From an uncultured Candidatus Saccharibacteria bacterium (lineage in GTDB: Bacteria > Patescibacteriota > Doudnabacteria > UBA920), in the NCBI GenBank assembly GCA_964600695.1, contig CAZRKK010000002.1:115900-179899 (forward strand): a DNA stretch of 64,000 nucleotides, read 5' to 3'. Position 1 is the first letter of the stretch, and every line of letters begins with the position of its first letter. Of the stretch, positions 1-51,795 are shown piece after piece. Both the position numbers and the translations under genes were made by a program. The notes under the pieces are model-generated. The model ran no database searches. It saw nothing but the letters and a program-made list of their open reading frames with translations, and had not been told where the DNA came from.

Positions 1-68
1 CCTCTCCTGTGACAGAGATGGTTGCGTTGGATCTTTCGGGTTTACTAACGTTATATATTTCGATCATT
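1..68 (-). CDS. N-terminal 22 codons of a gene continuing past the window start (product unknown)
   Basis: The minus-strand ORF begins at 68 (MIEIYNVSKPERSNATISVTGE...) and AAGGAGG lies upstream on the minus strand at about 82-88. Confidence 0.3.
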
Positions 69-152
69 TTAAATGAACAGCCTCCTTTTGTTTTTCCTGC
101 TTGGTTTCAACTTATATTACAAGCCTCACCAACTTGGTATTATACCTATTTC

Positions 153-188
153 TACGATTTTGTCAATGGAACGTAACAATGCTATAAT
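153..188 (+). promoter_or_regulatory. sigma70 promoter (TTGTCA-17-TATAAT) with the ATG 6 nt downstream, so a probably leaderless trmB-like mRNA
   Basis: TTGTCA at 153-158 and TATAAT at 183-188 are followed by ctacgt and then ATG at 195. Confidence 0.5.
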
Positions 189-194
189 CTACGT

Positions 195-935
195 ATGTAT
201 GAAAAAGAACTTCAAAATTTAGGGCTTTCCGAAAAAGAAGCCAAGGTTTACACCACCGCTTTAGAGCTTGGTGCAGACACAGTTCAGAATATTGCCAAGC
301 AATCCGGCATAAACCGTGCAACTACTTATGTACAAATCGACTCATTAACCGAGAAGGGTTTAATGAGTGAATTCGATAAGGGCAAAAAAACCTATTATGT
401 TGCCGAGTCACCAAACCGTTTAAAGAATTTACTATCTTCAATCGAAAAGGAGTTGGAAATAAAGAAAACAGAAGCAGGTACAATTATTCCTGGTCTTTTA
501 TCTTTATTTGAAGGAATGGGTGATCGTCCAAAAGTTAGATTTTTTGAAGGCATGGATGGGGCCACAGCTATGCGCGACGAATTCTTAAAGGGTAAGCATA
601 AGTTTATTTATGGCTTTATCAACTATGATAAATTATTTGAATTTTATCCAGATCAACAAACAGGTTATACAGATCTTCGTGCAAAGAAGGGGATTAAGAC
701 TAAAGTTTTCTATTCCAGTAAAGTGCCAGTAAAAGATGCGAATAGTAAGCAATTTTTAAGAGAAGCTAAATATATTTCTCCAAAAAAGATTGATATTTCA
801 GCTTCGGTCACTCTTTCTGGAAATAAAATTGCTATCTCAACTTACTCAAAGAATCCGACTAGCGTAGTAATCGAAAGTGAAATTATGGCTAAAACCTTTG
901 TTTCTATCTTCGAATATTTTTGGTCAATTAGTTAA
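195..935 (+). CDS. TrmB-family sugar-responsive HTH transcriptional regulator
   Basis: The N-terminal wHTH (GLSEKEAKVYTTALELGADTVQNIAKQSGINRATTYVQIDSLTEKGL) is followed by a TrmB C-terminal-like domain. Confidence 0.6.
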   Translation: MYEKELQNLGLSEKEAKVYTTALELGADTVQNIAKQSGINRATTYVQIDSLTEKGLMSEFDKGKKTYYVAESPNRLKNLLSSIEKELEIKKTEAGTIIPGLLSLFEGMGDRPKVRFFEGMDGATAMRDEFLKGKHKFIYGFINYDKLFEFYPDQQTGYTDLRAKKGIKTKVFYSSKVPVKDANSKQFLREAKYISPKKIDISASVTLSGNKIAISTYSKNPTSVVIESEIMAKTFVSIFEYFWSIS

Positions 936-968
936 AAATACACTGAATTTACTAGGTTATTTAAAAAA

Positions 969-996
969 AACTGTCATACACTATTGACAGTTTTTA
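969..996 (+). terminator. rho-independent terminator after the trmB-like gene
   Basis: Hairpin ctgtca-tacactat-tgacag is followed by TTTTT. Confidence 0.6.
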
Positions 997-1012
997 GTTT
1001 TTATGATAATAT
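984..1012 (+). promoter_or_regulatory. sigma70 promoter (TTGACA, then an extended -10 TGaTAATAT)
   Basis: ttgacagtttttagtttttatgataatat precedes the micro-ORF transcription unit. Confidence 0.45.
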
Positions 1013-1066
1013 TACTCCGATTTAAACATCCGTTACGAGGAATCTAACTAGAGGAGGTTCATCAGT

Positions 1067-1087
1067 ATGACAGGTGGGAACTGGTAA
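1067..1087 (+). CDS. micro-ORF MTGGNW (6 aa) with a perfect SD
   Basis: GAGGAGG lies 7 nt upstream of ATG. The stop is immediately followed by the GC hairpin GGGGCC-ACGG-GGCCCC (1089-1104). Confidence 0.3.
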   Translation: MTGGNW

Positions 1088-1205
1088 GGGGGCCACGGGG
1101 CCCCAAACCCAACTACTATCTGGAGTAATAGACCCGAATCAAAACTAGATACTGGTAATGTGTGTAAGTCGAAAAACAGAAATAAACCAAAACGGAGGTA
1201 AGGAA

Positions 1206-1247
1206 ATGAAGAACTATATCAATTTCGGCGGCGACGTCGCGTGGTAA
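1206..1247 (+). CDS. micro-ORF MKNYINFGGDVAW (13 aa) with a strong SD
   Basis: GGAGGTAAGG lies 5 nt upstream of ATG. Like micro-ORF1 it ends in ...W-stop. Confidence 0.3.
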   Translation: MKNYINFGGDVAW

Positions 1248-1314
1248 GCTAAACCCGTAAAAACGGTTCAGCAGATAATTCTGCTCTGCAAAATCAACAA
1301 TATGTTGGTTACGA

Positions 1315-1377
1315 GCGTCAATCAAATGAGATCATGAAGCTATGCTTTGGAATCAAATGATTGACGCTTTTTATTTT
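1315..1377 (+). terminator. rho-independent terminator closing the ~360-nt micro-ORF transcript
   Basis: A 10-bp stem (gcgtcaatca / tgattgacgc) with a ~33-nt loop is followed by tttttatttt. Confidence 0.55.
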
Positions 1378-1495
1378 ACCTAAAAATTTTACCCATGTTT
1401 ATATAATAGTCATGCTATGGTATCATAAAATCCACGTGGTTTATCCTTTATTTAAGCCAATATTTAACTACTAGGAATATTTTTGTCATTAGGTC

Positions 1496-1523
1496 TTGAC
1501 AAAATAAATATTTCATGTATACT
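1496..1523 (+). promoter_or_regulatory. sigma70 promoter (TTGACA-16-TATACT) driving the GC-rich ORF-free segment
   Basis: TTGACA at 1496-1501 and TATACT at 1518-1523. Confidence 0.5.
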
Positions 1524-1529
1524 GAGTTG

Positions 1530-2990
1530 TAAGCTGAAATTACCAAAAACAAATAACACTTTTTTAACTCTCGTATTCACTCGTTACTGTAGCGGGAAGA
1601 ATAATTCTGGCAGGCGACTAGACTCTACGGGGTCAATAATCATATCAATGTTCGCCGCACAGAATACTGAGAATTATAAAGGGTGTTATAAGTGGCTGGT
1701 GTTTCGGCTTTTAAAATACTCAAAGCCTGTCTGCAGTGGAGACCATGCATACAAATAAAATTGATGTAATGGTTATCAGCTTACTCCATTTGTAGACAGC
1801 CTGGCGGAAATTGAATTATTTCATTTTTTGCCGGACTGTCTACAACAGACAAAAATATAAAAAGGTTAGCTAGTGTGTGTCTAGCAGTTTACCAAGCGTT
1901 GACCAACTATCCTAGGATATGTCCGCAAAAACTAAACCCACTACACACAAAATTTTTAAGGAGGGGTATTTATCAGCACAATACTCCTAAGCAATCGATT
2001 GGCAAGAGGCCAACGACCCTGGAAATTTACCTGGCAGGGTAAGTTTCCAAAGCTTCGCTACTATGCGGTAGCAGCGGTTTACTGAATTGCCTGTGGAGCA
2101 ATTTTGTTAAATCGTAAACAGTAAGCGTGATGGATGGCCTGACCACAAAGGCTGCCATGTGCTGTTCCCGCCCGAACTTCTAGTTTGGGCTTCTATCCGA
2201 GAACATTACAAGTTAGTGTTCTCAGAGTGAATAAACTAATTCCTGTTCGCAACTCCTTGGCAGAAATTTATATCTAAATATTTGGATCTAAATTTCCGCC
2301 TTGGAGAGCGCGATAGCAGAGTAATCTGTGATAGGTGATACGTCTTAAACACAACGTATTGCCCGGGATTCGCCCGAAATCTCCACAAACTTGGATCCGC
2401 TGAAGAAGCCTAAGCAACTTCTACGCTCAGCCTTACAAGTTTGCCCAGAGAGTTTGGCGACTCTCGAAGGGAATTAGATGATGATTTGGCTCTAGGGCAT
2501 AAGCACCCCGACGAGTATTTGTTTTCCTTGGAAAGCATTTGGCCGCCAAGCCCAAAGAATCGGAAAGTTGGTCCTCACCTGGTCGCTTGCCGCAAGCAAG
2601 TCCAGCCTGAGGAAGTCTCATTACCAACAATGTGTCGCTAAACCATAGGAAAACAATGGTTGAAGGGCAAATATGAGAATAGGTCATGAAGCGTTGAGCC
2701 ATGCCGTAAACCTTTCTTCGGAAGGGAGAAAAACGGACTCGGGAATGCCTCCTGAGTACAGCGAAAGCCCTGATCCGGCCAGTAACTGTAATAAGCTTCA
2801 TAAAATCCTTCGGGATGACTGAAACGGTTGTTAGTGACTGCTTCGCAAGAAGTGTGGAAACTAACGGGTTAAAAGGAGCAGCGGTTACCATGCCGAGATG
2901 AAAATGTCTCGGTTAGCGCCGAGAAAAATCTGTTCCAAGAAAAAGATATTTGTCTTAGTCTTTTTCAAAAATCTCTTTAGGAGGAGAATT
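1530..2990 (+). ncRNA. candidate large structured non-coding RNA or intron-like element (unclassified)
   Basis: About 1.45 kb with GC near 50% in a ~36% GC genome. No ORF longer than 152 aa in any frame, and none with an SD. Many GC-rich nested hairpins (e.g. GAGAAC...GUUCUC at 2199-2223, GGCAGAAAUUU...AAAUUUCCGCC at 2258-2298). It has its own promoter. Confidence 0.35.
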
Positions 2991-2994
2991 TATT

Positions 2995-3261
2995 ATGAAA
3001 GTTATTTCGTTGTCCGCACTGAGTGCGGAGAAGCGAGTTGCCATCGCGGCGGCTCGGGTGACTGGAACGAATCCAGTCGTAGTCGGTAACTTTTGCACGC
3101 GGTGCAAATGTTGCGGACGCAACCAGCCGATCAAGGGGTTTGCCCCGGATCCGGCTCGGAAGCTCCGTGGGGTGGTGTGTGCACACTGTGCACAGCTGCG
3201 GACTCCGCGCTTGAGCCGTAACTCAGGCAAACAGAGAGATGTAACTCTGCAAAAAATTTAG
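2995..3261 (+). CDS. small Cys-rich (zinc-ribbon-like) protein, 88 aa
   Basis: Perfect SD AGGAGG lies 8 nt before ATG. Motifs CTRCKCC and CAHC are present. The gene is GC-rich. Confidence 0.5.
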   Translation: MKVISLSALSAEKRVAIAAARVTGTNPVVVGNFCTRCKCCGRNQPIKGFAPDPARKLRGVVCAHCAQLRTPRLSRNSGKQRDVTLQKI

Positions 3262-3597
3262 GTTTAAGTATTGTACCTTGAAACATAAACAATACATTCT
3301 TTTTTGAAAAGAGAAGTTCACTTGTCTTTTCAAAATTGAAAGTTTAGATACAAATCTTGTGGGGGTCTATGATAAAAATAATATTTCTCGGCGCTAGCGC
3401 TGGCGGAGCTATTGGTTAGCTCAGATCTAAATTAAAATATGTTTTTATATGGCAGTTTATTTATCTGCGTCCGGGAAGGATTCAAATAATTAAACTGTGT
3501 ATATCTGCATTCATGTGTTGTCGACATTTTTGCATACTATTAGGCCTATAGTATGAGTCGATGGAGTACAACATATAAAAACATATTGTCGCTTTAA

Positions 3598-3624
3598 GCT
3601 CGATTAATTTCGAGCATCTTTTTT
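3598..3624 (+). terminator. rho-independent terminator
   Basis: gctcga-ttaatt-tcgagc is followed by atcTTTTTT. Confidence 0.55.
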
Positions 3625-3654
3625 AGAACAGAATCCTGATTGTGTTTTGAAAAA

Positions 3655-3804
3655 GGGGATGACAGGCTTTCGACAGAAGACTAGCTTGGTTATGAAAGTA
3701 GGGTAAAACGTCTTTGATTTGAACCTGCGTGCAGTCGCAAGACTGTTGGATCTAATTGAGATTTTTCGTTCTGGATCCGGGTTCGAATCCCGGCATCTCC
3801 ACCA
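3655..3804 (+). ncRNA. tmRNA-like (ssrA-like) tRNA-like element, 150 nt, with no recognisable tag ORF
   Basis: The 5' end GGGGAUGACAGGCUUUCGACAG carries the tmRNA GGNUUCGAC motif. The 3' end GGAUCCGGGUUCGAAUCCCGGCAUCUCCACCA gives a T-arm and CCA. The 7-bp acceptor stem GGGGAUG / CAUCUCC pairs fully with one G-U. Confidence 0.5.
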
Positions 3805-3821
3805 CTTCTTTAGGAGGAAAT

Positions 3822-4103
3822 ATGAAAATATTTAGTTACTTGTTTTGGGCAGTATTTGTACCGTTTTGGTTTGTTGCAGTGGTTGTGCCGTTTTTTTCTG
3901 TGATGTTTGGGTTTGATTCAGTGATGAAGCACAACACTGATCGCACATGGACCTTGTACGGTTTATGGGTCATGGACTCAGTCATTGCAGACCGGTACTA
4001 CATCTTTATGGTGGCTACTGCATTTGTGATGGCGATTCTGTTTAGGATGGAATGGGTATTTAGTTCCAAGCTAAATAAAAAGGAGCGATTGAATCGTCAA
4101 TGA
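3822..4103 (+). CDS. small polytopic membrane protein (93 aa)
   Basis: SD AGGAGG precedes ATG at 3822 and the protein has 3 hydrophobic helices. The ORF-track start at 3756 lies inside the tmRNA-like element and is rejected. Confidence 0.55.
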   Translation: MKIFSYLFWAVFVPFWFVAVVVPFFSVMFGFDSVMKHNTDRTWTLYGLWVMDSVIADRYYIFMVATAFVMAILFRMEWVFSSKLNKKERLNRQ

Positions 4104-4192
4104 TCGCGTGGGCTCAACAGCGCCTGGAAACAGAAGCTGTTTTTTTATACCCTTCAAAATGATATAATTCAGGAGTAATTAATCTTGTATAT

Positions 4193-5464
4193 ATGGAACT
4201 AGGACCCCGACAATCTGAATATTTAGGTAAGCAATTTAAAACATTTAATGAGTTGGGCCATAAAAAATTTATGGAAGGCCGGGATTTTGATATTGCTGTC
4301 ATCAAGGAATTTTCTATAGAGTACCTTCGAAAAAATCATAAAAAGAACGAAGGTAATAATGGTGTGATTTTTAAACTAGAACTTCAGGATCCTAACAATG
4401 AGAATGAAACTGTTGAGTATGCTGGTAAGTTGCTAAAGGTGGGGAGTTACGAAGATTTAAAAGCGGAATATGATAATCAAATTGCTGCTTATGAAATTTT
4501 AGAAGAAGAAATAGCAAATGGTGCAGACCCTTTGAATTATAGTAAAATCCCTAGACCGTGTTTTTGTTTTCATCTTGAGTTAGATGATGAATTGAAAAAG
4601 CATCTTCAAGAAGAGGGGATTAAAAGCTCTGGCGATACACAAGGACTTCTTTTAATGGATTGGATTGATGGAGAGGATGTCGCCACTCATCTCTTTAAGG
4701 AAGCATTAAAACGTAAAGAAAGTAGATTCTTAGACACTATCAAGCCAGGAGATTTTAATCAGTTACATCAGGCTGTCGGATTAGAGTTTGAGTTTGCTAA
4801 GCCTGGTGGCAAAGCTACTCGAGCAGGTGATAAAATATTCGAAGAACGAAAAGTTGCAGCTGATAATGAATCTAAAATTTATAAGTTTTTAAAGAAGAGT
4901 GGTTATATTTTTCCTAAAAATACTCTTGAACAAATTCGAAATACTCTAGACTTGTTTAGCAGTAAAGGCTTAGAGATGTGGGATAGTCACGCTCGCAATG
5001 TAATGTTGGATCCAGAAGGTGATCGACCATACTTAATCGACTTTGCTCCTCAAAAGAAGCAACTTGGCGGCGAAGCAGCAACCTTAGACCCTTATGTTTT
5101 GATAAGACAGTTAGAAAGTCTTACTACAACTCCACAAGAAGATCATCAGGCTGAAATAGAATCTAAGTTTACTGAATGGGACGCTAATTACCAAAAGAAA
5201 ACCCAAGACCCACGTTGGGTAGCTGCTTTTATAAATAAAGCACCAACTGGTGAGAAATTCCTAAAACATGCCCAGTACGAAATTGCTAGTGGTGTGGATG
5301 AAGATCGTGTGCAGGGAAATATTTACGCCTTATTTTATAAAGCTAATCAAAATGAGATTAGTCCAGAAGCAGTCTTAGGTTTGTTAACAGAGTTATCTAG
5401 CAAAGAAAATCTTCCTTGGAAAAAAGCTAAAATAGATTTAGCAATAAAAAAAGCGGGTAAATAA
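4193..5464 (+). CDS. atypical protein-kinase-like (PKL/APH-fold) protein
   Basis: A beta3 Lys region (AGKLLKV), a hinge (LLLMDWIDGEDV), a catalytic loop (WDSHARNVML) and a DFG-like IDFA are all present. Confidence 0.45.
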   Translation: MELGPRQSEYLGKQFKTFNELGHKKFMEGRDFDIAVIKEFSIEYLRKNHKKNEGNNGVIFKLELQDPNNENETVEYAGKLLKVGSYEDLKAEYDNQIAAYEILEEEIANGADPLNYSKIPRPCFCFHLELDDELKKHLQEEGIKSSGDTQGLLLMDWIDGEDVATHLFKEALKRKESRFLDTIKPGDFNQLHQAVGLEFEFAKPGGKATRAGDKIFEERKVAADNESKIYKFLKKSGYIFPKNTLEQIRNTLDLFSSKGLEMWDSHARNVMLDPEGDRPYLIDFAPQKKQLGGEAATLDPYVLIRQLESLTTTPQEDHQAEIESKFTEWDANYQKKTQDPRWVAAFINKAPTGEKFLKHAQYEIASGVDEDRVQGNIYALFYKANQNEISPEAVLGLLTELSSKENLPWKKAKIDLAIKKAGK

Positions 5465-5497
5465 TTACCCGCTAACTGCTTTTTGGTTGTTCATTCT
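5465..5497. terminator. bidirectional terminator between convergent genes
   Basis: gcgggtaa-ataa-ttacccgc is flanked by an A-run and a T-run. Confidence 0.5.
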
Positions 5498-5682
5498 AGA
5501 ATGGAAATTCTCATAGTTTTTCCGGTTGATTTTTCTTTGGTGGTGATGGAAGTCTCGGTAAGCTTAACTTCAAAAGCGTCTTTTTCGCCAGATGCTGCTT
5601 CAGCTTTTTCGAGGATTTCCCGTTCCTTCTTTCTCAATTCATTTTTATTATATACTTTTACTTCCTTTTTATTATTGCTCAT
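5491..5682 (-). CDS. small charged hypothetical protein (63 aa)
   Basis: SD AGGGGG lies 4 nt upstream and the protein is Lys/Glu-rich. Confidence 0.4.
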   Translation of the reverse strand: MSNNKKEVKVYNKNELRKKEREILEKAEAASGEKDAFEVKLTETSITTKEKSTGKTMRISILE

Positions 5683-5740
5683 GAGACCCCCTGACTATTT
5701 GTAATACTGCTTTTATAAAGCGCTCTACATTATATAGTAA

Positions 5741-5770
5741 TTGACAACTTTAGTCAACCCCTGCTATAAT
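5741..5770 (+). promoter_or_regulatory. sigma70 promoter (TTGACA-18-TATAAT) of the rplJL operon
   Basis: The -35 and -10 hexamers match consensus exactly. Confidence 0.6.
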
Positions 5771-5777
5771 CCTATTA

Positions 5778-6033
5778 ACTAAATATCCCAAGACAGTTGG
5801 TGGCCAAAAGCCTTAAAATAGCCTAAAAACTAAACCCACCGAGGAACAAAACCAAGTCGCACCAATTATAGATTGGTAGACGAGGTAATTTGTGGCTCGG
5901 AAACTTATATAAGTCCGAGTTTTATTGTTCTAAAAACAGTTTATGCCGCGGGGCATGGCAGGATTATTTAGCAGAAAGGTCGAATTACCAGCCGTGGAAT
6001 TAACCACGTGATTGGATCCTAAAAGGAAAAATT
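5778..6033 (+). promoter_or_regulatory. ribosomal-protein L10 (rplJ) leader, the likely L10(L12)4 autoregulatory structure
   Basis: A ~255-nt untranslated leader lies between a consensus promoter and rplJ. This position is conserved across bacteria, but the structure itself was not verified. Confidence 0.45.
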
Positions 6034-6549
6034 ATGGCAAAAACAAGACAACAGAAAGAGCAAGATTTAACAGAGTTAACTGAACGCCTTAAAGGCGCCA
6101 AGAGTATTGTACTTGCGGATTACCGTGGTACAACTGTAAAAGATATTGATACCTTTCGTCGCTCACTTGGTAGTGAAGGCGTAGTCAGTAAAGTTTACAA
6201 AATCTCTTTAGTGAAGAAAGCTTTCGAAGCTAATAACATCGATGCCACTTCACTCGATTATAAGACTCCTGTAATTCTAGCTGTTTCTCAAGATGATGAA
6301 GTTGCTCCGGCACGAATCATTAAAAATGTATCTAAAGATGTTAAGACAATCAGCATCTTAAGCGGTGTTATGGATGGTACTTTTGCCACTCGCGAACAAG
6401 TTATTGCTTTGGCAGAATTGCCAAGCAAAGACCAACTTCGTGGTATGTTGGTTGGAACCATCAACGCTCCTGTGTCTGGCTTTGTAAATGTCTTAGCTGG
6501 AAATATCCGCGCTTTAATCAATGTATTAAACGCAACCGCTGCTAAATAA
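6034..6549 (+). CDS. rplJ: 50S ribosomal protein L10
   Basis: 171 aa with L10-family sequence and position. Confidence 0.9.
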   Translation: MAKTRQQKEQDLTELTERLKGAKSIVLADYRGTTVKDIDTFRRSLGSEGVVSKVYKISLVKKAFEANNIDATSLDYKTPVILAVSQDDEVAPARIIKNVSKDVKTISILSGVMDGTFATREQVIALAELPSKDQLRGMLVGTINAPVSGFVNVLAGNIRALINVLNATAAK

Positions 6550-6585
6550 TTTTAGTAGCCTAATCAATTAATTTAAGGAAATATT

Positions 6586-6990
6586 ATGTCAGAAGAAAAC
6601 AAGACAGTAGAAGTTCCTGCTAAGTTCGTAGAACTAGTTGGACAAATCGAAAAGCTTTCCGTATTGGAACTTTCCGAATTAGTAAAAGTTTTAGAAGAAA
6701 AGTTTGGTGTTAGTGCAGCTGCTCCTATGATGATGGGTGCTATGCCTGCTGCTGGTGGCGCTGCCGCTGCAGAAGAAAAAGATGAATTCAGTGTAGAATT
6801 AACAGCTGCTGGCGAAAGCAAGATCAATGTGATCAAAGTTGTTCGCGAAGTTACTGGTCTTGGCTTAAAAGAAGCTAAGGATATGGTAGACGGCGCTCCT
6901 CAAGTTATCAAAGAAAACGCTCCAAAAGCAGAAGCTGAAGAGTTGAAGAAGAAACTTGAAGAAGCTGGTGGTACTGTTACTCTTAAGTAA
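6586..6990 (+). CDS. rplL: 50S ribosomal protein L7/L12
   Basis: It shows an N-terminal dimerisation domain, an Ala/Gly/Pro hinge and the C-terminal [15 protein letters not shown]...TVTLK. Confidence 0.95.
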
Positions 6991-7022
6991 TCAACCCTAA
7001 CTTATACAGTTATACTAAAAAT

Positions 7023-7046
7023 GACCTCCATACGGAGGTCTTTTTT
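7023..7046 (+). terminator. rho-independent terminator after rplL
   Basis: gacctcc-atac-ggaggtc is followed by TTTTTT. Confidence 0.7.
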
Positions 7047-7145
7047 GTTATCCAAGACTATAAATGTTACCCACAGGTTGTATTTGCGTATAGATAAGAA
7101 ACCATGCACAATTAATGTAAGACAGGAATTAATAAGTAGGTCTCG

Positions 7146-8267
7146 ATGAAAAAAAACTTATCAGTTTGTATATTAATCGCCATGGTTCTTGGTCTGCTCT
7201 TTATTGTTTTTAAGTCTGAAAAAACTCGGCCTAGAATTTCTGGAGCAGTGATTCCACACCATAATATAGTGGCCAATCAAAGGCAGCAATTTTTTACACA
7301 GTTGGCCGAGCAGGTTGGAGTTGGGAATTACCCAGAGACAATAATATTGGTATCGCCTAATCATTACAATGCTGGTTTCGGTAAAATTCAAACTTCCAAC
7401 CAAAACTGGGAATTGAGCGTAGGTTCAATTAACCATGATGCAGATGTTGTGAGTGATCTGTTAAGTGATGGTGAAGATAATGAAGAGAGCGTCGCGACAA
7501 ACGAGCCGGGAAGTTTTACAGACGAACATGGTATATACAACATACTCGGTGATATCCATAATACTTTTCCTGACGCAAAGATAGTGCCTATTATATTAAA
7601 GGATCCATCTCAGGAAGAGCTAGTTGAATTGCAGAAATCATTAGCCAAGTCTTGTCATAATTGTTTAATGTTGGCTTCGGTAGACTTTTCGCACTATCAA
7701 CCTGCTCGGATTGCCGAATTACATGATCAAAAAACTATTCGTGATTTACAAAATTTAGATACGGATGATGTTTTAAAGAATGCCGAAGTTGATTCTGGAG
7801 CATCATTGGCGCTTTTGATGATGTGGGCTAAAGCTAATCAGACAATGCGATTTAATTTAGTTAACAATACTAATTCTAGCTTGCTCTTAAATGACCCAAG
7901 TTTAGAGGGCACGAGTCATGTGTTTGGATGGTATCAAACTGGGCGGAAAGTTCGGCCAGAACAGTTTACTAGTTTTGTAATAACTAAAAACCTGAATGTT
8001 GGAGTAGAAAATAGAGCAATTTGGGGTACGGATCTGGTTGTGAATCAACCTCTAATTAATTCCAGTGACCCTAATCTATCATTAGATAAGGTTGTAATAT
8101 TCGGCAAGCTCACAAAGAACGGTATGGATTTATTTGGATTTCCTCTCGACCCCAAAGATCCTACAAAGCTGATGACAAAGTCAGAATTGTCTTTCGATAA
8201 TTTGTCATCGTCAATAATAAAGAGTAAAATTAAATTATTAATTAATCAAAACAATGAACGAAAATAA
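7146..8267 (+). CDS. membrane-anchored MEMO1-family (class III extradiol dioxygenase subunit B-like) protein
   Basis: An N-terminal TM segment, GAVIPHHNIV, VSPNHY and the family motif DFSHYQ are present. Confidence 0.45.
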   Translation: MKKNLSVCILIAMVLGLLFIVFKSEKTRPRISGAVIPHHNIVANQRQQFFTQLAEQVGVGNYPETIILVSPNHYNAGFGKIQTSNQNWELSVGSINHDADVVSDLLSDGEDNEESVATNEPGSFTDEHGIYNILGDIHNTFPDAKIVPIILKDPSQEELVELQKSLAKSCHNCLMLASVDFSHYQPARIAELHDQKTIRDLQNLDTDDVLKNAEVDSGASLALLMMWAKANQTMRFNLVNNTNSSLLLNDPSLEGTSHVFGWYQTGRKVRPEQFTSFVITKNLNVGVENRAIWGTDLVVNQPLINSSDPNLSLDKVVIFGKLTKNGMDLFGFPLDPKDPTKLMTKSELSFDNLSSSIIKSKIKLLINQNNERK

Positions 8268-10059
8268 AACAAATTCTGGGGCACTAGCTGGGTTGTCACA
8301 AAAGTTGGGTGACTATCAGTACCTTGCTCCGTTGCTAGGAGTACTAATTGTATTATTAGTTGGCATAGGTGTTTGGTATTGGCAAAAATATAATGCTTCT
8401 ACTTTGACCCCAGGTGGTTATGGTTACTACTTTGATGGTCAACAGCCTCCGCTTCCAGAAACACCAGTTTTACCCGAGGGAAGTTATTATGTACCGACTA
8501 CAGTAGAAAATCCAGACTCCTCTGGAGCTCCTAAAGCAAATACTACTGTGCAGTGGAAGTCTGCCGCAAAGCTAGAAGATATGGGTCTAATTAAAGGTTT
8601 ACAAGAAGGTTATGATGAAGTTGAATATTACTATCTAGGAAACCGTGGTGCCAACAAGATTATTTTAGCTCAGGTCCCAGCAATGGATCCTGGTGGGCCA
8701 AGTATTTTCTTATTTGAGCAAACAAGTAAGGGTTATACTTTCATGTCCTTAATGTCCAGCCAGTATTTTTACAGAGGACCAAATGACCCAATGGGTAGTG
8801 GTTATTACGCCATTAGTCCATTAGTCACAAGTTCTGATACTAAGAGCTATTACTACGGTATTGTGGGTCCTTCGAAATTTACTTATAACGGCTCCACTTT
8901 AGAACAATCATATTTAAGACCATTAAGTATGTTCGAATTGTACCGAGAGTCTGCAGTGAAAGATTTGGATACAACAGTAACTAAAGTCGCTACACTTAAG
9001 GATGGTGAGTTGTATATTTTTCAAAGTAACACTTTCGTGGACGAAACTACACCAAATCAAGAAAGATTCATTGCTCGCCGATATATACTAAAATTACCAA
9101 GTGGTTTATACACTAATTATAATGTGACTTATGGTTTCTTTTCGGATGACAGAGTTCCAAATATCACTTGGACAGACGGGACAAAGAATACGGATATTTA
9201 TAGCCAAGCTGCATCTTTAAGCGGTTGTGGTTCACCAGGGGCATACATTGTTCCGGCCAGAGATATCTCTGGAGATGTAAAAATTGCTGGAACGACTAGC
9301 ACTAATAATGTTATTTACGAATTTAATGATGTTAAAGATAAAACTTTAGAGTATTTCTATAAGTTACAAGGTGGGCAGCGTTATAATAGAGAGACAAATC
9401 AATTTGAACCCATGTCTATTTCTGAATGGTACAAGCATCATCCAGTAATAGCAATCAAAAATAGTGCAGGGGATTATGTGCTCATGACTAATGAAGCTTA
9501 TGGTCTTGCAGCAGAATGTGGTAAGCCTGTTATCTATTTATACCCAACTCAGCCAACCGCAGTTTCTGTTAAAGTAGGCGCAGACGTAACTGTTTCCGAA
9601 CCAGCTTATAATCAGGGTTGGAAAGTTATTGCTAAGCCTAATGGCTCGTTAATTAATAGTGATGGTTTAAGTTATGATTCATTGTTCTGGGAAGGCTTAG
9701 GCGATGGTCAGTATCCTTCTATTAGAGCCGGGTTTGTTGTAGCTCAAAAAGACCTTGATAAAACTATTACAGAGCATTTAAAAGCTCAGGGTTTGAATGC
9801 CAAGGAATCTCAAGACTTTAAAGATTTTTGGATGTCCAGATTACCAAAAACTCCTTATGTTCGTCTAACTTGGTTTACAACTGCTCAGATGGACAGCTTA
9901 GCTCCTTTGTACGTGACTCCTAAGCCAGATACTGTAATTCGTGTGTTCCTAGATTTTGCAGGTATGAATGAGTTTGCATCTATTCCTCAGCAAAAGTTAA
10001 CTGCTGTTCCTCGACAAGGTTTCACTCTTGTAGAGTGGGGTGGACTATTAAAAAAGTAA
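8254..10059 (+). CDS. hypothetical membrane-anchored extracytoplasmic protein (601 aa)
   Basis: One N-terminal TM is followed by a large Tyr/Gly/Asn-rich ectodomain. Confidence 0.5.
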   Translation: MNENKTNSGALAGLSQKLGDYQYLAPLLGVLIVLLVGIGVWYWQKYNASTLTPGGYGYYFDGQQPPLPETPVLPEGSYYVPTTVENPDSSGAPKANTTVQWKSAAKLEDMGLIKGLQEGYDEVEYYYLGNRGANKIILAQVPAMDPGGPSIFLFEQTSKGYTFMSLMSSQYFYRGPNDPMGSGYYAISPLVTSSDTKSYYYGIVGPSKFTYNGSTLEQSYLRPLSMFELYRESAVKDLDTTVTKVATLKDGELYIFQSNTFVDETTPNQERFIARRYILKLPSGLYTNYNVTYGFFSDDRVPNITWTDGTKNTDIYSQAASLSGCGSPGAYIVPARDISGDVKIAGTTSTNNVIYEFNDVKDKTLEYFYKLQGGQRYNRETNQFEPMSISEWYKHHPVIAIKNSAGDYVLMTNEAYGLAAECGKPVIYLYPTQPTAVSVKVGADVTVSEPAYNQGWKVIAKPNGSLINSDGLSYDSLFWEGLGDGQYPSIRAGFVVAQKDLDKTITEHLKAQGLNAKESQDFKDFWMSRLPKTPYVRLTWFTTAQMDSLAPLYVTPKPDTVIRVFLDFAGMNEFASIPQQKLTAVPRQGFTLVEWGGLLKK

Positions 10060-10076
10060 TATAAGATCTTAAAAAA

Positions 10077-10101
10077 ACCTTGGATAATCCAAGGTTTTTT
10101 T
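10077..10101 (+). terminator. rho-independent terminator
   Basis: accttgg-ataat-ccaaggt is followed by TTTTTT. Confidence 0.65.
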
Positions 10102-10156
10102 AAATAGCCAACTGTAGTTATTTGGGTTATACTAAGAAAAAATTTAAGGAGATCAT

Positions 10157-10759
10157 ATGAAAAGACTTACTATCCGTACTGGAAGAGTAGAGGCCGTTTT
10201 GGTTGGTATGTGGCAGACTGAATCAAAGACAATTGAGGTTGATTCGATAAAATGTTTTATCAACGAAGGTATTAAGGGTGATAAACATAGTATGGGTAGA
10301 GTAGGAGATGCTAGGGAAGATGCTATTAAGCACTTTGGATTACCAAAAGATATTCAAGTTGCTAACATGAGAGAATTCTCCGCTATCTCTGTGGAGGAAC
10401 TGGAAGAGATTAGCAAGAATATGTCTTTATCTGAGAGAATTCCTTTTGGATGCTTGGGGGAAAATATTGTGATAAGTGGTATTGGTGATTTTAGCAAATT
10501 ACCTCCTAATACTCAGTTATTTTTTGAAACCCCGAGTCATCAGAAGAGAGCATGCTCTTTGTTGGTGTGTGATCAAAACAATCCATGTCTTGAACCTGGT
10601 AAAAATATTGCTGAATACTTTGCAGACGAAAAACTAGCTGCTATGTTCCCAAAAGCGGCAATGGACAGGCGAGGGTTAGTAGGTATAGTTTATACTTCTG
10701 GAAAGATAAAAGTAGGCGACAAAGTTTTCGCGTATAGTTTTACAAAAACCCCTGATTGA
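10157..10759 (+). CDS. MOSC-domain protein (YiiM-like)
   Basis: A beta-barrel MOSC signature is present, including GENIVISG and conserved Cys. Confidence 0.55.
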   Translation: MKRLTIRTGRVEAVLVGMWQTESKTIEVDSIKCFINEGIKGDKHSMGRVGDAREDAIKHFGLPKDIQVANMREFSAISVEELEEISKNMSLSERIPFGCLGENIVISGIGDFSKLPPNTQLFFETPSHQKRACSLLVCDQNNPCLEPGKNIAEYFADEKLAAMFPKAAMDRRGLVGIVYTSGKIKVGDKVFAYSFTKTPD

Positions 10760-10776
10760 CAGGGGTTTTATTTTTT
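10750..10776. terminator. bidirectional terminator (MOSC gene / convergent phosphatase gene)
   Basis: cccctg-attga-cagggg is followed by ttttatttttt. Confidence 0.6.
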
Positions 10777-12832
10777 AGAATTTAACTGAAAGTAATTCAG
10801 AACCATTCAAGATATATATGATCTTAGCTTTTTCATCAACAGTAAAATCTTTTAGTTCAGTAAACTGGTCACTGGTTAGGGTTTTAACCAAAGCACCGGT
10901 CTTGTTTAGAATTACTACGCGCTTGTTGCCACTATCTAAAATGTATAAGTTTGTAAAATCATTTTGAGTGAATAACTTTGTGGTACTTGATAGACCAGAG
11001 ATACCAGGTGAGTAGTCCTGTTTTTTACCAGAGTTATATTTTAAAATAGTACCGCTAGTGGCAACATAAATATTGCCATCAATAGCTAAGTCGGAACCAG
11101 ACTTAAATTGATCATCTTGAGCCGAAACTGTTCCAGAGGTAAAGGTTCTATTAGCTGTTGTAAAATTACGAATTTCACCCTTAGATTTGTCTAATACATA
11201 AACTTTATTATTAGTAGCGTAAGTTTTCATGCCACCAAAATTGTCTCCGCTTGGCACATTATCACTATATCTTCCTGTCACAATGTCACTGTTATAATCC
11301 CAGACAAATAATTCCGAACCATTATATATAGCGGCCATGTTATTTGCTAAGCTAGTGCTGTCTAAAATTGGTTCACTAGATTTAAGTTTGTTATCCACAA
11401 TTGATTTGGATGATTTTTGGTAGGCAACTATAGAGCGATTAACTTCCACAGCAAAATAGTCTGGCAAATTAATTAAATTACTACCATTCCCGAGTGTGCC
11501 TAAATTAGTTGCAGAAACCTTTTCTACTTTATTAAGTTTTAGGTTAAGCTCGTCTGCTTGCTTCTTTAAATCTGCATACTTACTAGCTTGATCACTTTTT
11601 TCTATATCACTTGGCAGTTGAGAGAATAAACTAGCCACTTCCGAATAGAGCTTGGAAGCTTGCTCTTGATCGCCATATAATAGGGCAGCGTTAGCATCAT
11701 TTAAAGATTTTTCGATATTAGTAAGTGCTGAAGTGGACTGAGTTACAGTTTCTACTTTTTTGTTGTTAACCTGAGCGATAATTAGGTTGGTAACTAAAGC
11801 GATTAATAGAATAGCTGCAGAAATTAAGAAAAACTTTTTTTGTCGGCTATAACCAGAGACTTGTCCACTAATTTGATTTGGTTGGAATTTAGAAGCAGTC
11901 TTTTTTAAAGTACCTTGAACTAAACCAATTCCTTTTCCAGACTTCGAAGCAATGCCTTGCCAATAACTCTTCTTGATATATTTTGTTTTAAAATCACCAA
12001 GGAAATTTTTGGAAATTAATAATCCAGTACTAGCGGCTTGTTTTACTTTATGAGGGATCCAACTTTTACCTTTGTTGCTAATCTGACCTGGGTTAGTAAT
12101 CACTTCGGACTTCGCAACTGGTCCAGTTAAGTATTGGCTCAAATCTACTTCTTCATCAGAAGTCGTGCCTGCTTTAACTTGCAAAGCAAAGATAGTCCCA
12201 CAGGCTACGTCTGGACCCATATCATCATTAAGATATTCAATGATGCTTTGCGCGGCGATAGGAAGATCGTTTTTATCAATCAAATTTTTAATGCGATCAA
12301 TAGAAATATGATTCAAAAGTTCTGGAGTCGAAAGCATAAATAAATCTCCTAGGCGCATTTTGCCTTCGGAGAATTGTTCAAAAGTTTTTAGAGGTTGATT
12401 GCTTCCAATGGAATTATCGGTGATAGATGAAAACTTACCTTCGCGGTAAATTAGCGCAGAGATTTTTCCAACACTTGAAACACTTAATACGCCATCGTGT
12501 TTGACTGCAACTGCAGCGTTAAGTTTGCCTAACCAATGAGTTTTGCCCAGAGTGACAAGCTTGCTTAACTCTTCGTTGATACTAGCTAAGGCAGATTCGA
12601 AAATTCCTTGCTGTGAGGTGCGGCGGTAGGTTCTTTTTAAAGAAGCAGTGATAGCCTCGGCGATTCTCTGGCATTCGTCTTTAGCAGCAGGATTGAACAT
12701 GGGCAATTCACAGATCACATAGATCTCTGTGCCAATAGAATCGATAGTTTCGGCTAGGGTATAGACGAAAGTTGAAGACTGACGATTGTCTCCCAGCTGA
12801 ATCTTTACTACTTGTGTTTCTAATTCTGTCAT
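10775..12832 (-). CDS. membrane protein with an N-terminal PP2C-like phosphatase domain, one TM and a C-terminal NHL/beta-propeller-like repeat domain
   Basis: PP2C-like blocks (AAVAVKHDGVLSVSSVGKISALIYREG; GDLFMLSTPELL), then a TM helix (FFLISAAILLIALVTNLIIAQV), then repeated YVLD/IYVAT/LYILD beta-strand motifs. Confidence 0.45.
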   Translation of the reverse strand: MTELETQVVKIQLGDNRQSSTFVYTLAETIDSIGTEIYVICELPMFNPAAKDECQRIAEAITASLKRTYRRTSQQGIFESALASINEELSKLVTLGKTHWLGKLNAAVAVKHDGVLSVSSVGKISALIYREGKFSSITDNSIGSNQPLKTFEQFSEGKMRLGDLFMLSTPELLNHISIDRIKNLIDKNDLPIAAQSIIEYLNDDMGPDVACGTIFALQVKAGTTSDEEVDLSQYLTGPVAKSEVITNPGQISNKGKSWIPHKVKQAASTGLLISKNFLGDFKTKYIKKSYWQGIASKSGKGIGLVQGTLKKTASKFQPNQISGQVSGYSRQKKFFLISAAILLIALVTNLIIAQVNNKKVETVTQSTSALTNIEKSLNDANAALLYGDQEQASKLYSEVASLFSQLPSDIEKSDQASKYADLKKQADELNLKLNKVEKVSATNLGTLGNGSNLINLPDYFAVEVNRSIVAYQKSSKSIVDNKLKSSEPILDSTSLANNMAAIYNGSELFVWDYNSDIVTGRYSDNVPSGDNFGGMKTYATNNKVYVLDKSKGEIRNFTTANRTFTSGTVSAQDDQFKSGSDLAIDGNIYVATSGTILKYNSGKKQDYSPGISGLSSTTKLFTQNDFTNLYILDSGNKRVVILNKTGALVKTLTSDQFTELKDFTVDEKAKIIYILNGSELLSVKF

Positions 12833-14430: not shown

Positions 14431-14558
14431 TTATCTAAAATGTGGATAACTTTCATGGTGAACGAACATACAGCCTATTTTGGGCTGTTTTTTATTTATT
14501 GACATGGGGTGTACGCTCGTATACTATTTATATACAAGAGCACTAATTAAAAAAATCT

Positions 14559-15170
14559 ATGAGTATCACAAAGAGGCAAAAAGAATTACTAGAATTTATA
14601 GTCCATCAAGTTCGGGAGTACAGCATGCCTCCATCATTATCCGAGATGGCAGACCATCTAGGTGTTAAATCTAAGAACGCGGTAGCCAAATTACTTACCG
14701 CACTAGAAGATGGTGGTTACATAGAGACTAACGGTAAAGCTCGGGGGATATCAGTATTAGAAAGTTTGTCTGATAGTCTCCAAAAAGGTTTGGTGCGAGT
14801 ACCGGTGTTGGGTTCTATTCAGGCGGGTAGCCCTCATTTAGCAGAAGAATTTGTAGAAGAGTGGATAAACTTACCTCAATCGTTTATCAAGGGTCGCCGC
14901 GATGTATTTCTTCTCCGAGTTAGGGGAGATAGTATGATCAACGCTGGTATTCATGAAGGTGATCTAGTAATTGTTCGTCCGACTCGCGAAGCAAAGCATA
15001 ACGATATCGTAGTAGCACTCCTTCATGATGAAGCCACTGTAAAGAGATTCGTTCAAATTAAAAATCGTGCCTACTTAAAAGCAGAGAATCCAGACTATCA
15101 AAACATATATCCAAAAGAAGAGTGGATGGTGCAAGGTAAAGTAGTCGGTGTAATTCGAAATTTAGAATAA
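14559..15170 (+). CDS. lexA: LexA repressor (S24 peptidase)
   Basis: An N-terminal wHTH is followed by the Ala-Gly cleavage region and the Ser (GDSM) / Lys catalytic dyad. Confidence 0.9.
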   Translation: MSITKRQKELLEFIVHQVREYSMPPSLSEMADHLGVKSKNAVAKLLTALEDGGYIETNGKARGISVLESLSDSLQKGLVRVPVLGSIQAGSPHLAEEFVEEWINLPQSFIKGRRDVFLLRVRGDSMINAGIHEGDLVIVRPTREAKHNDIVVALLHDEATVKRFVQIKNRAYLKAENPDYQNIYPKEEWMVQGKVVGVIRNLE

Positions 15171-50546: not shown

Positions 50547-51146
50547 ATGGAATATTCAAAATACGACGCCATATTTATGATCGGTCCCCAAGGTAGTGGT
50601 AAAGGTACTCAGGGTAAGGTTTTGGCGAATAAAATCAATTTTTTCTACTGGGAAATGGGTGCCATTTTACGTGAAGAAGCTAAAAAGCAAACCCCTTTCG
50701 GGATTAAAGTTAAAAGTTTAATTGATGCTGGTCATCTACTTGAAGACGAAGAGTTATTCCGTGTTTTACAAACTGAACTTCCAGAAGTAATTAAGCACAA
50801 GCGATTGTTGTTTGATGGTGTACCTCGAACAGTACCCCAAGGTATCCATTTGGTTCATTACTTACAACAAAATGGTTTTACTCAGTTTGGAGCGATTGTG
50901 ATTGAAGTACCAAAGGCAGAATCTGTAAAGCGGCTTTTAGAACGAGCACATCATGAGTTTCGTACAGATGATACTCCCGAAAAAATTGAGTTCCGTTTGG
51001 ACTTGTACGAAACACAGACTTTACCAGTTATAAAATTCATGGAAGGACTAGGGGATTTACATAGAATAGATGGAGTTGGATCAATTGAAGAAATTACTCA
51101 AAGAATCGATACAGCTTTAGGAATAACAAATTCTAATGAAGACTAA
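50547..51146 (+). CDS. adk: adenylate kinase (short type, no LID zinc)
   Basis: P-loop GPQGSGKGTQ and NMP-binding motifs. Confidence 0.85.
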   Translation: MEYSKYDAIFMIGPQGSGKGTQGKVLANKINFFYWEMGAILREEAKKQTPFGIKVKSLIDAGHLLEDEELFRVLQTELPEVIKHKRLLFDGVPRTVPQGIHLVHYLQQNGFTQFGAIVIEVPKAESVKRLLERAHHEFRTDDTPEKIEFRLDLYETQTLPVIKFMEGLGDLHRIDGVGSIEEITQRIDTALGITNSNED

Positions 51147-51795
51147 GTCTGCTCAAAAAAAATCTCCTCAACTAAACTTAATTTTATTAGGTGATGTTGC
51201 AGCGGGAAAAGCAACTCAATCGGCTTACTTCTCTAAAAAATATAAACTGTTTGACTTTGACATGGGTCGCGAGCTAACTTTACTGCGAGAAAAACAGAAG
51301 TCAGTCAATCATACTCTTAAAAAAAATTACGACAAAGGTATTTTGGCACCGACTCAGTTGTGTCGAAAAATTTTAGTCGATAAAATTTCTAAACTTCCTA
51401 AGTCAAAAGGTATTTTGTTTGACGGCCATCCTAAGATGGTTCAGGAGGCTCGTTTAGCAGATAAGTTGTTACGCCAGACTGGTCGTAGTAAGCCATTGGT
51501 TTTATATATAACTATTCCAGTTAAGGAAACCCAGAAGCGAATTGCCACTAGAAAAGGTTATTTAGGCACGCACACTTCTCATCGCTCCGACGACACAGTA
51601 AAAGGGTTGCAAAATCGAGCGAAGTATTACAGAAAAAATATTAAAGCAGTCACTGAATATTTTGCAACAGTTTATACTTTTGCAAGAATCGACGGAATGG
51701 GAACGCCGGCTCAAGTTCGTAATAGAATTCAGAAAGCTATTACTTTTTATTTAAAAAATTATGAAGCAATATACAAAAACACCCAAAGAAATTGA
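51136..51795 (+). CDS. second adenylate/NMP kinase-like paralogue
   Basis: P-loop GDVAAGKATQ and the same fold. Overlaps adk by 11 nt. Confidence 0.6.
   Translation: MKTKSAQKKSPQLNLILLGDVAAGKATQSAYFSKKYKLFDFDMGRELTLLREKQKSVNHTLKKNYDKGILAPTQLCRKILVDKISKLPKSKGILFDGHPKMVQEARLADKLLRQTGRSKPLVLYITIPVKETQKRIATRKGYLGTHTSHRSDDTVKGLQNRAKYYRKNIKAVTEYFATVYTFARIDGMGTPAQVRNRIQKAITFYLKNYEAIYKNTQRN

Follow-up and report, generated by a model that had tools for sequence, protein, structure and literature searches.

A gene of 150 nt at positions 3655-3804 (+) of the window (the whole stretch of DNA analysed, 64 kb long), read from the sequence with an encoded CCA end, is best interpreted as a functional, strongly reduced homologue of ssrA from a small clade of the ultra-small Patescibacteria, whose product would serve as an alanyl rescue RNA without tagging; we give this reading a probability of about 60%. 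The grounds for it that were observed directly are the homology to tmRNA, the conservation of the gene, a covarying structure and the absence of a conserved ORF. A tmRNA is by definition a tRNA joined to an mRNA, and the tag frame is regarded as near-universal in bacteria; what is new here is a family found across a clade, with a reduced architecture that is defined and covarying. The parts of the gene and of its immediate flanks are the following:

3598-3654 (+): upstream control region, from the terminator scan and the alignment of the relatives' upstream DNA
3655-3804 (+): whole miniature tmRNA-like gene; Rfam RF00023, 52 bits; homologues of 127-154 nt
3655-3661 (+): acceptor stem, 5' strand GGGGAUG; pairs with 3794-3800 (CAUCUCC), including G3·U70; invariant in 9/9 sequences
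3662-3673 (+): D-loop analogue ACAGGCUUUCGA; aligns to the Rfam consensus GAucuGGaUUCGAC; near-invariant in the family
3674-3680 (+): helix P2, 5' strand CAGAAGA; pairs with 3766-3773 (UC-g-UUCUG) in the constrained fold
3685-3692 (+): helix H3, 5' strand CUUGGUUA; pairs with 3753-3760 (UAAUUGAG) in the constrained fold
3698-3728 (+): helix H4, GUAGG (3698-3702) with CCUGC (3724-3728), closing a 21-nt loop (3703-3723) in the constrained fold
3731-3746 (+): extra hairpin GCAGUC-GCAA-GACUGU with a GNRA loop, which gives a three-way junction in the constrained fold
3777-3793 (+): T arm CCGGG-UUCGAAU-CCCGG, from the Rfam alignment; compensatory changes at two pairs
3801-3804 (+): discriminator A73 and encoded CCA; invariant in the family
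3822-4103 (+): ORF for a membrane protein of 93 aa; a 58%-identical homologue lies at the same position in relative L019

tRNA-like domain, arm and reading frames

The Rfam model for tmRNA (RF00023) covers exactly positions 3655-3804 with 52.0 bits against a gathering threshold of 47 (E = 1.4e-17 in the 64-kb window), a match that, judged from the sequence, is far beyond chance; the relatives score 47.6-66.1 bits. The alignment runs from model position 1 to 374, with 90 nt of the window RNA standing in for the 314-position core of the model. The model for permuted two-piece tmRNA (RF04321) reached 19.9 bits against a gathering threshold of 47, and this partial match was restricted to the T arm and the 3' end. 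The gene starts with GGGGAUGACAGGCUUUCGAC and ends with GGAUCCGGGUUCGAAUCCCGGCAUCUCCACCA. An earlier note on this DNA, made from the letters alone, had described the two halves of a tRNA-like domain with a perfect acceptor stem and about 100 nt between them, and this description was borne out: the stem has 7 bp (G1-G7 with C140-C146, then ACCA) and the spacer measures 98 nt. The elements expected of the domain, namely the 7-bp acceptor stem, G3·U70, A73, CCA, the T arm and a D-loop analogue without a D stem, are all present, and they are invariant or covarying across the nine sequences of the family described below. G3·U70 together with A73 forms the identity set for alanine recognised by AlaRS. 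A helix that links this domain to the remainder of the molecule is also present; P2, of 7-9 bp, is the equivalent of tmRNA helix 2a, and the 9-bp P2 of the six short forms in the family carries four pairs changed on both sides. Thus, the RNA has the tRNA-like domain and helix 2 of RF00023, and neither the message nor the pseudoknots of that family were recognised in it; for this reason we name it a reduced tmRNA variant and not a standard member.

The layout of the RNA was proposed from the six short forms. It begins with the 7-bp acceptor stem and the D-loop analogue; then come a 9-bp P2, a junction of 3 nt, an H3 of 7 bp that contains a bulge, a 4-bp H4 and a loop of 20-21 nt, followed by the T arm. 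In the corresponding alignment (A3), 97.4% of the cells of the 32 proposed pairs are paired, and 10/32 pairs are changed on both sides, among them four in the 7-bp H3 homologue; H4 shows one double change and one one-sided change. When the partners were slid by 1-3 columns pairing fell to 45-51%, with two double-changed pairs at most, and none of 500 shuffled controls reached the observed pairing, double-change count or covariation score. RNAalifold, run independently, recovered the acceptor stem, the T arm, P2 and part of H3. The unconstrained minimum-energy fold of the 150-mer is misleading (the T arm pairs with the core), and folding was done with the tRNA-like domain held fixed; under this constraint the window RNA adopts the same plan as the short forms (P2, H3 and H4). 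The extra GNRA hairpin is confined to the long forms and corresponds to a 17-nt insertion relative to the short ones. L005 carries an insertion at this site and its minimum-energy fold differs in detail from that of the window, so that the long forms are less certain in their distal part.

The loop closed by H4, parsed by hand as 20-21 nt long across the family, opens with the motif G(A)UAA. In the model the stacked arm would be about 20 bp long, which is roughly the length of helix 2 in canonical tmRNA; the loop would therefore be placed where pseudoknot 1 and the message would begin. Nothing corresponding to PK1 or to PK2-4 was found, the 98-nt spacer being filled by the nested helices P2, H3 and H4 and one hairpin. 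No covarying pairing between the loop and the junctions was seen by eye across the family, with folding tools that are blind to pseudoknots, so that a small one is possible. The 21-nt loop was also considered as a pairing partner of the junctions or of an upstream RNA (block 1, see below), and the idea was dropped, given that no consistent covariation was visible by eye.

Regarding a message, ARAGORN called neither a tmRNA nor a tag in the 64-kb window, where its sole call was one tRNA-Glu, and it found no tag when run over the family members; a normal tag peptide was thus not identified at the locus. The note had stated that no tag ORF can be read here, and its frames ending in ...DCWI* and ...KTVGSN* were reproduced; three-frame translation of the nine family sequences revealed no stop that keeps both its position and its phase. 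The stop triplets conserved in position are two: the UAA of G(A)UAA, which occurs in every family member (window 3704-3706), and a UGA in the H4/H3 junction that in the window reads UGG. In E. coli tmRNA the residues U85/A86 are conserved and A86 fixes the resume frame (PMC2481249), and the invariant UA of G(A)UAA resembles this box. When the U85/A86 rule (positions -5/-4 of the resume codon) is applied to the window it yields CGU CUU UGA, that is, Arg-Leu-stop; in the relatives it yields 15 codons (L005) or 9 codons (L009 and L021), and in L007, L011, L013 and L019 the frame stays open across the T arm and reaches the 3' end without a stop. Judged from these sequences, the pattern is not the signature of a conserved ORF. 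An mRNA-like domain with a resume codon, a tag frame and an in-frame stop was therefore not recognised in this RNA, ARAGORN being negative, the ORFs given by the rule inconsistent and four members devoid of a stop; a hidden tag was rejected on the same evidence. A split tmRNA, with its coding piece in one of the two conserved RNAs upstream of the gene, was rejected as well: these contain no conserved small ORF or stop, and the window stop found there at ...CAUACAAAUAA is not conserved in the relatives.

Relatives and genomic context

The relatives were first reached through the contigs of homologues of a 423-aa protein encoded downstream of the gene (4193-5464, +); these homologues are 38-55% identical, besides one near-identical copy. 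A search of 5.8 billion sequences gave nine homologues of this protein; its sole Pfam hit is weak (TCAD9, E = 0.0024), and a kinase-like HxxxN...DFA motif was identified by eye. The same miniature RNA is found upstream of the homologues in L005 (154 nt), L007 (128 nt) and L009 (127 nt); L005 is a complete genome of 943 kb (CP064996.1), whose RNA scores 66 bits with RF00023. A pattern scan that required the two halves of the tRNA-like domain at a spacing of 61-121 nt yielded 9 loci in 185,579 species-representative genomes, and also 43 metagenome contigs and 7 viral contigs. The family of the window is marked by 5' GGGGAUGACAGG..UUCGA and the internal G(A)UAA motif. It includes the window (L001, identical to L002) and eight distinct relatives with genes of 127-154 nt: L005, L007, L009, L011, L013 (identical to L015), L016, L019 and L021.

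The nine family sequences stem from independent assemblies, and in the relatives that carry a homologue of the neighbouring 423-aa protein this protein is 49-55% identical. Across the relatives the tRNA-like domain is 92-98% identical to that of the window and the arm 24-49%, and the flanks of the gene are unalignable with the exception of a short upstream element. The metagenome-assembled genomes with the family are labelled Candidatus Saccharibacteria or Doudnabacteria, and GCA_016699995.1 is placed in the GTDB class Doudnabacteria (supplement of PMC13011429). By sequence comparison, the gene is conserved and no relic, and purifying selection acts on the sequence of the tRNA-like half and on the shape, rather than the sequence, of the short arm. 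Consequently, the proposal in the earlier note of a drastically reduced or non-canonical ssrA gains support from the Rfam threshold being passed, from the eight distinct relatives and from the compensatory changes in the helices; a run of the Rfam tmRNA model had been among its suggested checks, and the RF00023 match falls on the exact coordinates.

The context is that of an ordinary housekeeping chromosome. The window includes rplJ and rplL with the L10 leader, metK preceded by a SAM riboswitch, and genes for LexA, AspRS, CysRS, ThrRS, DnaB, RecR, DnaE, Adk, Map, L25 and PrmC. L001, L005 and L007 have one gene order in common: the TrmB-like regulator is followed by the variable region, then by the miniature RNA and small ORFs, and these by the kinase-like 423-aa protein and rplJ. 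No tblastn match to smpB was obtained in the 64-kb window or in the 69 fetched loci with approximate SmpB sequences of E. coli and B. subtilis as queries. Two adjacent and overlapping adenylate-kinase paralogues (50547-51146 and 51136-51795, +) precede the gene for methionine aminopeptidase.

In the upstream control region, the terminator scan detected a terminator-like hairpin (3598-3615) with a T run, and between it and the gene lies an imperfect palindrome, AGAACA-N-UUGUGUUUUGAAAAAG, that directly adjoins the +1 G and is kept 5' of the miniature gene in most relatives. On the 3' side, the ribosome-binding site of the 93-aa ORF begins 8 nt past the CCA, and since there is no terminator between them this ORF is probably co-transcribed with the miniature RNA. 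The upstream element (window 3617-3654) is repeated in the relatives, where a variable terminator hairpin with UCUUUUCC is followed by the palindrome AGAACA-N9-11-UUGUGUUUUGAAAAAGG; copies occur at L005:2054, 4548, 5311, 5994 and 6891, L009:550, 926 and 1640, L019:5035, 5332 and 6958, L021:593 and 1153, and L007:3875 and 4995. There it precedes several unrelated small ORFs, and its 3' end provides the ribosome-binding site. From its sequence, the element may serve as a common operator or promoter, or it may form a hairpin in the 5' UTR, and a palindrome common to shuffled small accessory ORFs looks more like conditional than constitutive expression. It was rejected as a LexA box given that the upstream region of the LexA gene itself (14490-14560; gene 14559-15170) has a different palindrome: there, a consensus promoter (TTGACA...TATACT) overlaps GUAC/GUAUAC palindromes, which are a possible SOS box of this lineage.

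The 2.7 kb of ORF-free DNA upstream of the gene contain two strongly conserved RNAs on the + strand (blocks 1 and 2), neither of which matches an Rfam family at E < 0.1. Block 1 is a structured RNA of about 330 nt (~1529-1850, +) that starts near GUAAGCUGAAA, ends in a long hairpin and is preceded by a near-consensus promoter (TTGACA at 1496-1501, TG-TATACT at 1516-1523). Its copies in distant relatives (L005:1354-1788, L007:1914-2327, L013:4383-4728 and L011:4037-4464 on the - strand) are 73-81% identical, and RNAalifold predicts 111 pairs, 18 of them double-changed, from five sequences. Block 2 (~2297-2972, +; about 680 nt, with a less conserved extension from ~2150) is rich in GNRA and UUCG hairpins. 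Copies are found at L005:2567-3290, L007:2758-3556 and L013:5103-5790, and it is absent from L011, although L011 carries block 1. Its identity is 72-83% in relatives with ~50-55% identity in the neighbouring 423-aa protein, its substitutions have no codon (3-) periodicity, and from four sequences RNAalifold predicts 181 pairs, 48 with compensatory double changes; block 2 is a candidate for a new large non-coding RNA, and both blocks may be more novel than the miniature tmRNA itself. A phage origin was considered for the miniature RNA and for these upstream RNAs and was dropped: blastn against 50,697 phage records gave no match to any of them, block 2 included.

The note had also suggested that a GC-rich block upstream of the gene may relate to integration; this found no support, since the block (~3000-3260) corresponds to a short ORF rich in Cys, whose homologue in L011 is 58% identical, and what lies upstream of it are the conserved non-coding RNAs rather than an attachment site. 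This ORF (2995-3261, +; 88 aa, CxxC...CxxC, strong ribosome-binding site) has no Pfam family, and its surroundings (200 nt) have ~60% GC against 38% in the genome. The homologue in L011 and a partial match in L019 occupy other positions in the variable region; the ORF belongs to the small-gene cassettes that are shuffled between relatives. A 24-nt inverted repeat at 3294-3343, 83% complementary with a 2-nt spacer, has similar copies in L007, L011 and L019 and may be another cassette-boundary element.

Proposed rescue without a message and its alternatives

Given that the complete tRNA-like domain has been kept, we infer that the RNA would be processed like a tRNA, receive alanine from AlaRS and bind SmpB and EF-Tu, and that it would enter stalled ribosomes in a SmpB-dependent manner. 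The nascent chain would then be taken over by the alanyl RNA and freed without a proteolysis tag. Isolated tRNA-like domains with SmpB can perform the first steps of rescue in vitro. For the release step two options can be proposed: the invariant loop UAA might be read as an immediate stop, or release might be independent of a stop codon, for example through drop-off with Pth or an ArfB-type factor. The geometry of the first option is doubtful since the UAA lies only 1-2 nt from helix H4. Pseudoknot 1, the tag message and pseudoknots 2-4 are replaced by one irregular arm made of P2, H3, H4 and the 20-21-nt loop. The narrower proposal, that the miniature RNA is the only ssrA of the clade, a message-less rescue RNA that acts with SmpB and releases the chain at the loop UAA or without a stop codon, is one that we regard as possible and lean somewhat against.

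If this narrower proposal is true, the mRNA half of tmRNA would be dispensable in a bacterium that is neither an organelle nor an insect endosymbiont. A clade in which the tRNA half is under strong selection, and in which the message and the pseudoknots were swapped for a covarying arm, amounts to a natural experiment, one that could tell whether the release of the ribosome or the proteolytic tagging is the indispensable part of trans-translation, and how a peptidyl-tmRNA gets resolved without a template. In practical terms, Rfam-based pipelines are expected to label these genes 'tmRNA', given that the threshold is passed, and to leave the missing tag unflagged; ARAGORN overlooks such genes entirely.

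The main rival, which we consider unlikely, is that the genome has a canonical ssrA at another site and that the miniature RNA is a decoy or regulator that competes for SmpB, AlaRS or EF-Tu and thereby dampens or tunes trans-translation. According to Mao 2009 (cited in PMC4131195), a variant with only the tRNA-like domain inhibits the normal tmRNA of E. coli, so that such a role is possible; in the accounts given by PMC4131195 and PMC11915505, the inhibition is strong and perhaps due to titration of SmpB. The many other miniature RNAs located in tRNA arrays of viral or viral-like contigs, and the palindromic element shared by the gene and the variable small-gene cassettes, point in the same direction. 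However, the position of the gene is chromosomal and syntenic (TrmB-like regulator, miniature RNA, kinase-like 423-aa protein, rplJ), nothing similar appears in the phage records mentioned above, and the family of the window is missing from the seven viral-contig matches; furthermore, the arm of the family is kept by covariation, and an RNA that did no more than soak up SmpB could do without this. An improbable reading is that the RNA is a working tmRNA whose tag is very short or particular to the lineage, with a small ORF of its own in each species. The invariant UA in a motif like the conserved box upstream of the resume codon would fit it, as would the in-frame stops in five of the nine family sequences and the 2-aa tags (Ala-Ala) known in other bacteria (PMC11915505). 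Nevertheless, the frame has no stop up to the 3' end in L007, L011, L013 and L019, five of nine is no better than a rough chance estimate of ~70% for ~25 codons, the putative peptides are dissimilar to one another and lack the usual hydrophobic end residues, ARAGORN calls no tag, and the motif stands 1-2 nt from a helix and not in a long single strand.

Still less probable is a tRNA-like RNA with another job, either as the alanine donor of a non-ribosomal transferase or as a processing signal that separates transcripts. The absence of the message part suits it, and past the CCA, with no terminator between, comes the ribosome-binding site of the next gene (8-20 nt away) or a tRNA-Cys; yet every feature that sets tmRNA apart from tRNA-Ala has been kept (the GG..UUCGA of the D-loop analogue, a P2 helix where the anticodon stem would be, and the score with the Rfam tmRNA model), and no aminoacyl-transferase gene is linked to it in the window context. 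The integration relic suggested in the earlier note, or equally a decaying pseudogene, would have arisen by insertion of an island into the middle of ssrA or by deletion of it; tmRNA genes are common integration sites (PMC11915505), and the DNA 5' of the gene varies between relatives. Both halves are, however, intact in 9/9 family sequences, the loop is held at 20-21 nt, and the helices carry compensatory changes. No duplicated or truncated 3' attachment copy was found: the last 26 nt of the gene are single-copy in the 64-kb window with up to three mismatches allowed, positions 1-12000 contain no direct or inverted repeat (no other long direct repeat in particular) relevant to such a scar, and the sequence upstream is a conserved element. 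When an island uses a tRNA or tmRNA gene as its target, it inserts at the 3' end of that gene, and here the variable DNA lies on the 5' side. Conservation and covariation therefore effectively refute the scar and the pseudogene, which we rank below the other readings.

Other miniature RNAs and comparison with known systems

Pattern scans (L020-L069 and others) revealed about 40 further distinct RNAs of 106-164 nt with the tRNA-like domain of tmRNA and a short core, for example L030:3945-4054, L028:9730-9837, L060:3611-3728, L064:4715-4853 and L018:3369-3509. All are matched by model R1 through the common tRNA-like domain, and they comprise at least two further motif classes, one with a GACGAAAGGCCCA motif and one with a GCGUGGUAGC hairpin. 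Many are placed in tRNA arrays (L020, L030, L032, L045, L060 and L068), and seven of the loci are in IMG/VR viral contigs. Only for the 164-nt RNA of L034 does ARAGORN find a tag at the coordinates of the miniature RNA itself. In L020 it calls a 319-nt tmRNA (1883-2201, -; tag EAAQARALG*) whose 3' end coincides with a 137-nt miniature RNA (1880-2016); within this tRNA array, a single 3' half thus seems to be combined with either of two 5' halves. The evidence for many other miniature RNAs of the tRNA-like-domain type is new, and their being fairly common in phage-like tRNA arrays bears on the manipulation of ribosome rescue by phages. If the miniature RNA is the only ssrA of its clade and a message-less rescue RNA, these RNAs would form a broad and overlooked class of tag-less relatives of tmRNA.

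Compared with the standard one-piece tmRNA (ssrA, RF00023), the miniature RNA is alike in the acceptor stem with G3·U70, the A73-CCA end, the D-loop analogue GG..UUCGA and the T arm, and also in that helix 2 leaves at the site of the tRNA anticodon stem. It differs in size, 127-154 nt against the 374 positions of the Rfam model, which leaves no room for pseudoknots 1-4, and in that it has no conserved resume codon, tag frame or stop, its core being the covarying arm with the 20-21-nt loop. Tag-less bacterial tmRNA has already been flagged in the literature, though not analysed: the 2025 tmRNA database has nine 'standard, no CDS' sequences, three of them in Patescibacteria, and states that Nasuia and one species of Patescibacteria ('9FT-COMBO-53-11 sp001772805') 'may lack tag reading frames' (PMC11915505). 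Like the RNA described here, these are bacterial one-piece genes without a findable tag frame; the paper gives them one sentence and analyses neither their structure nor their conservation (PMC11915505). The name '9FT-COMBO-53-11' implies a GC content of ~53%, against 38-44% in our family, and the 141-nt RNA of L018 (55% GC) may be closer to it.

The RNA of mycobacteriophage DS6A, together with engineered variants (Mao et al. 2009), is likewise a message-less tRNA-like domain that could compete for SmpB; it is described as 'little more than the TLD', is borne by a phage, and SmpB competition was suggested for it (PMC4131195). The miniature RNA differs from this type in that it is chromosomal and syntenic, in a housekeeping context and with no phage match, and in that it has a conserved, covarying arm of ~75-100 nt instead of a bare domain. 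The tmRNAs of mitochondria (jakobids and oomycetes) and of some plastids are reduced, apparently tag-less and conserved, and they co-occur with SmpB (PMC11915505); these are mostly circularly permuted two-piece RNAs, whereas the miniature RNA is one-piece with its CCA encoded. Finally, in bacteria with tags of two residues (Ala-Ala), for example Fermentibacterota (PMC11915505), tagging has been reduced to almost nothing, but a recognisable resume codon and stop codon are retained within an architecture that, as far as reported, is the standard one.
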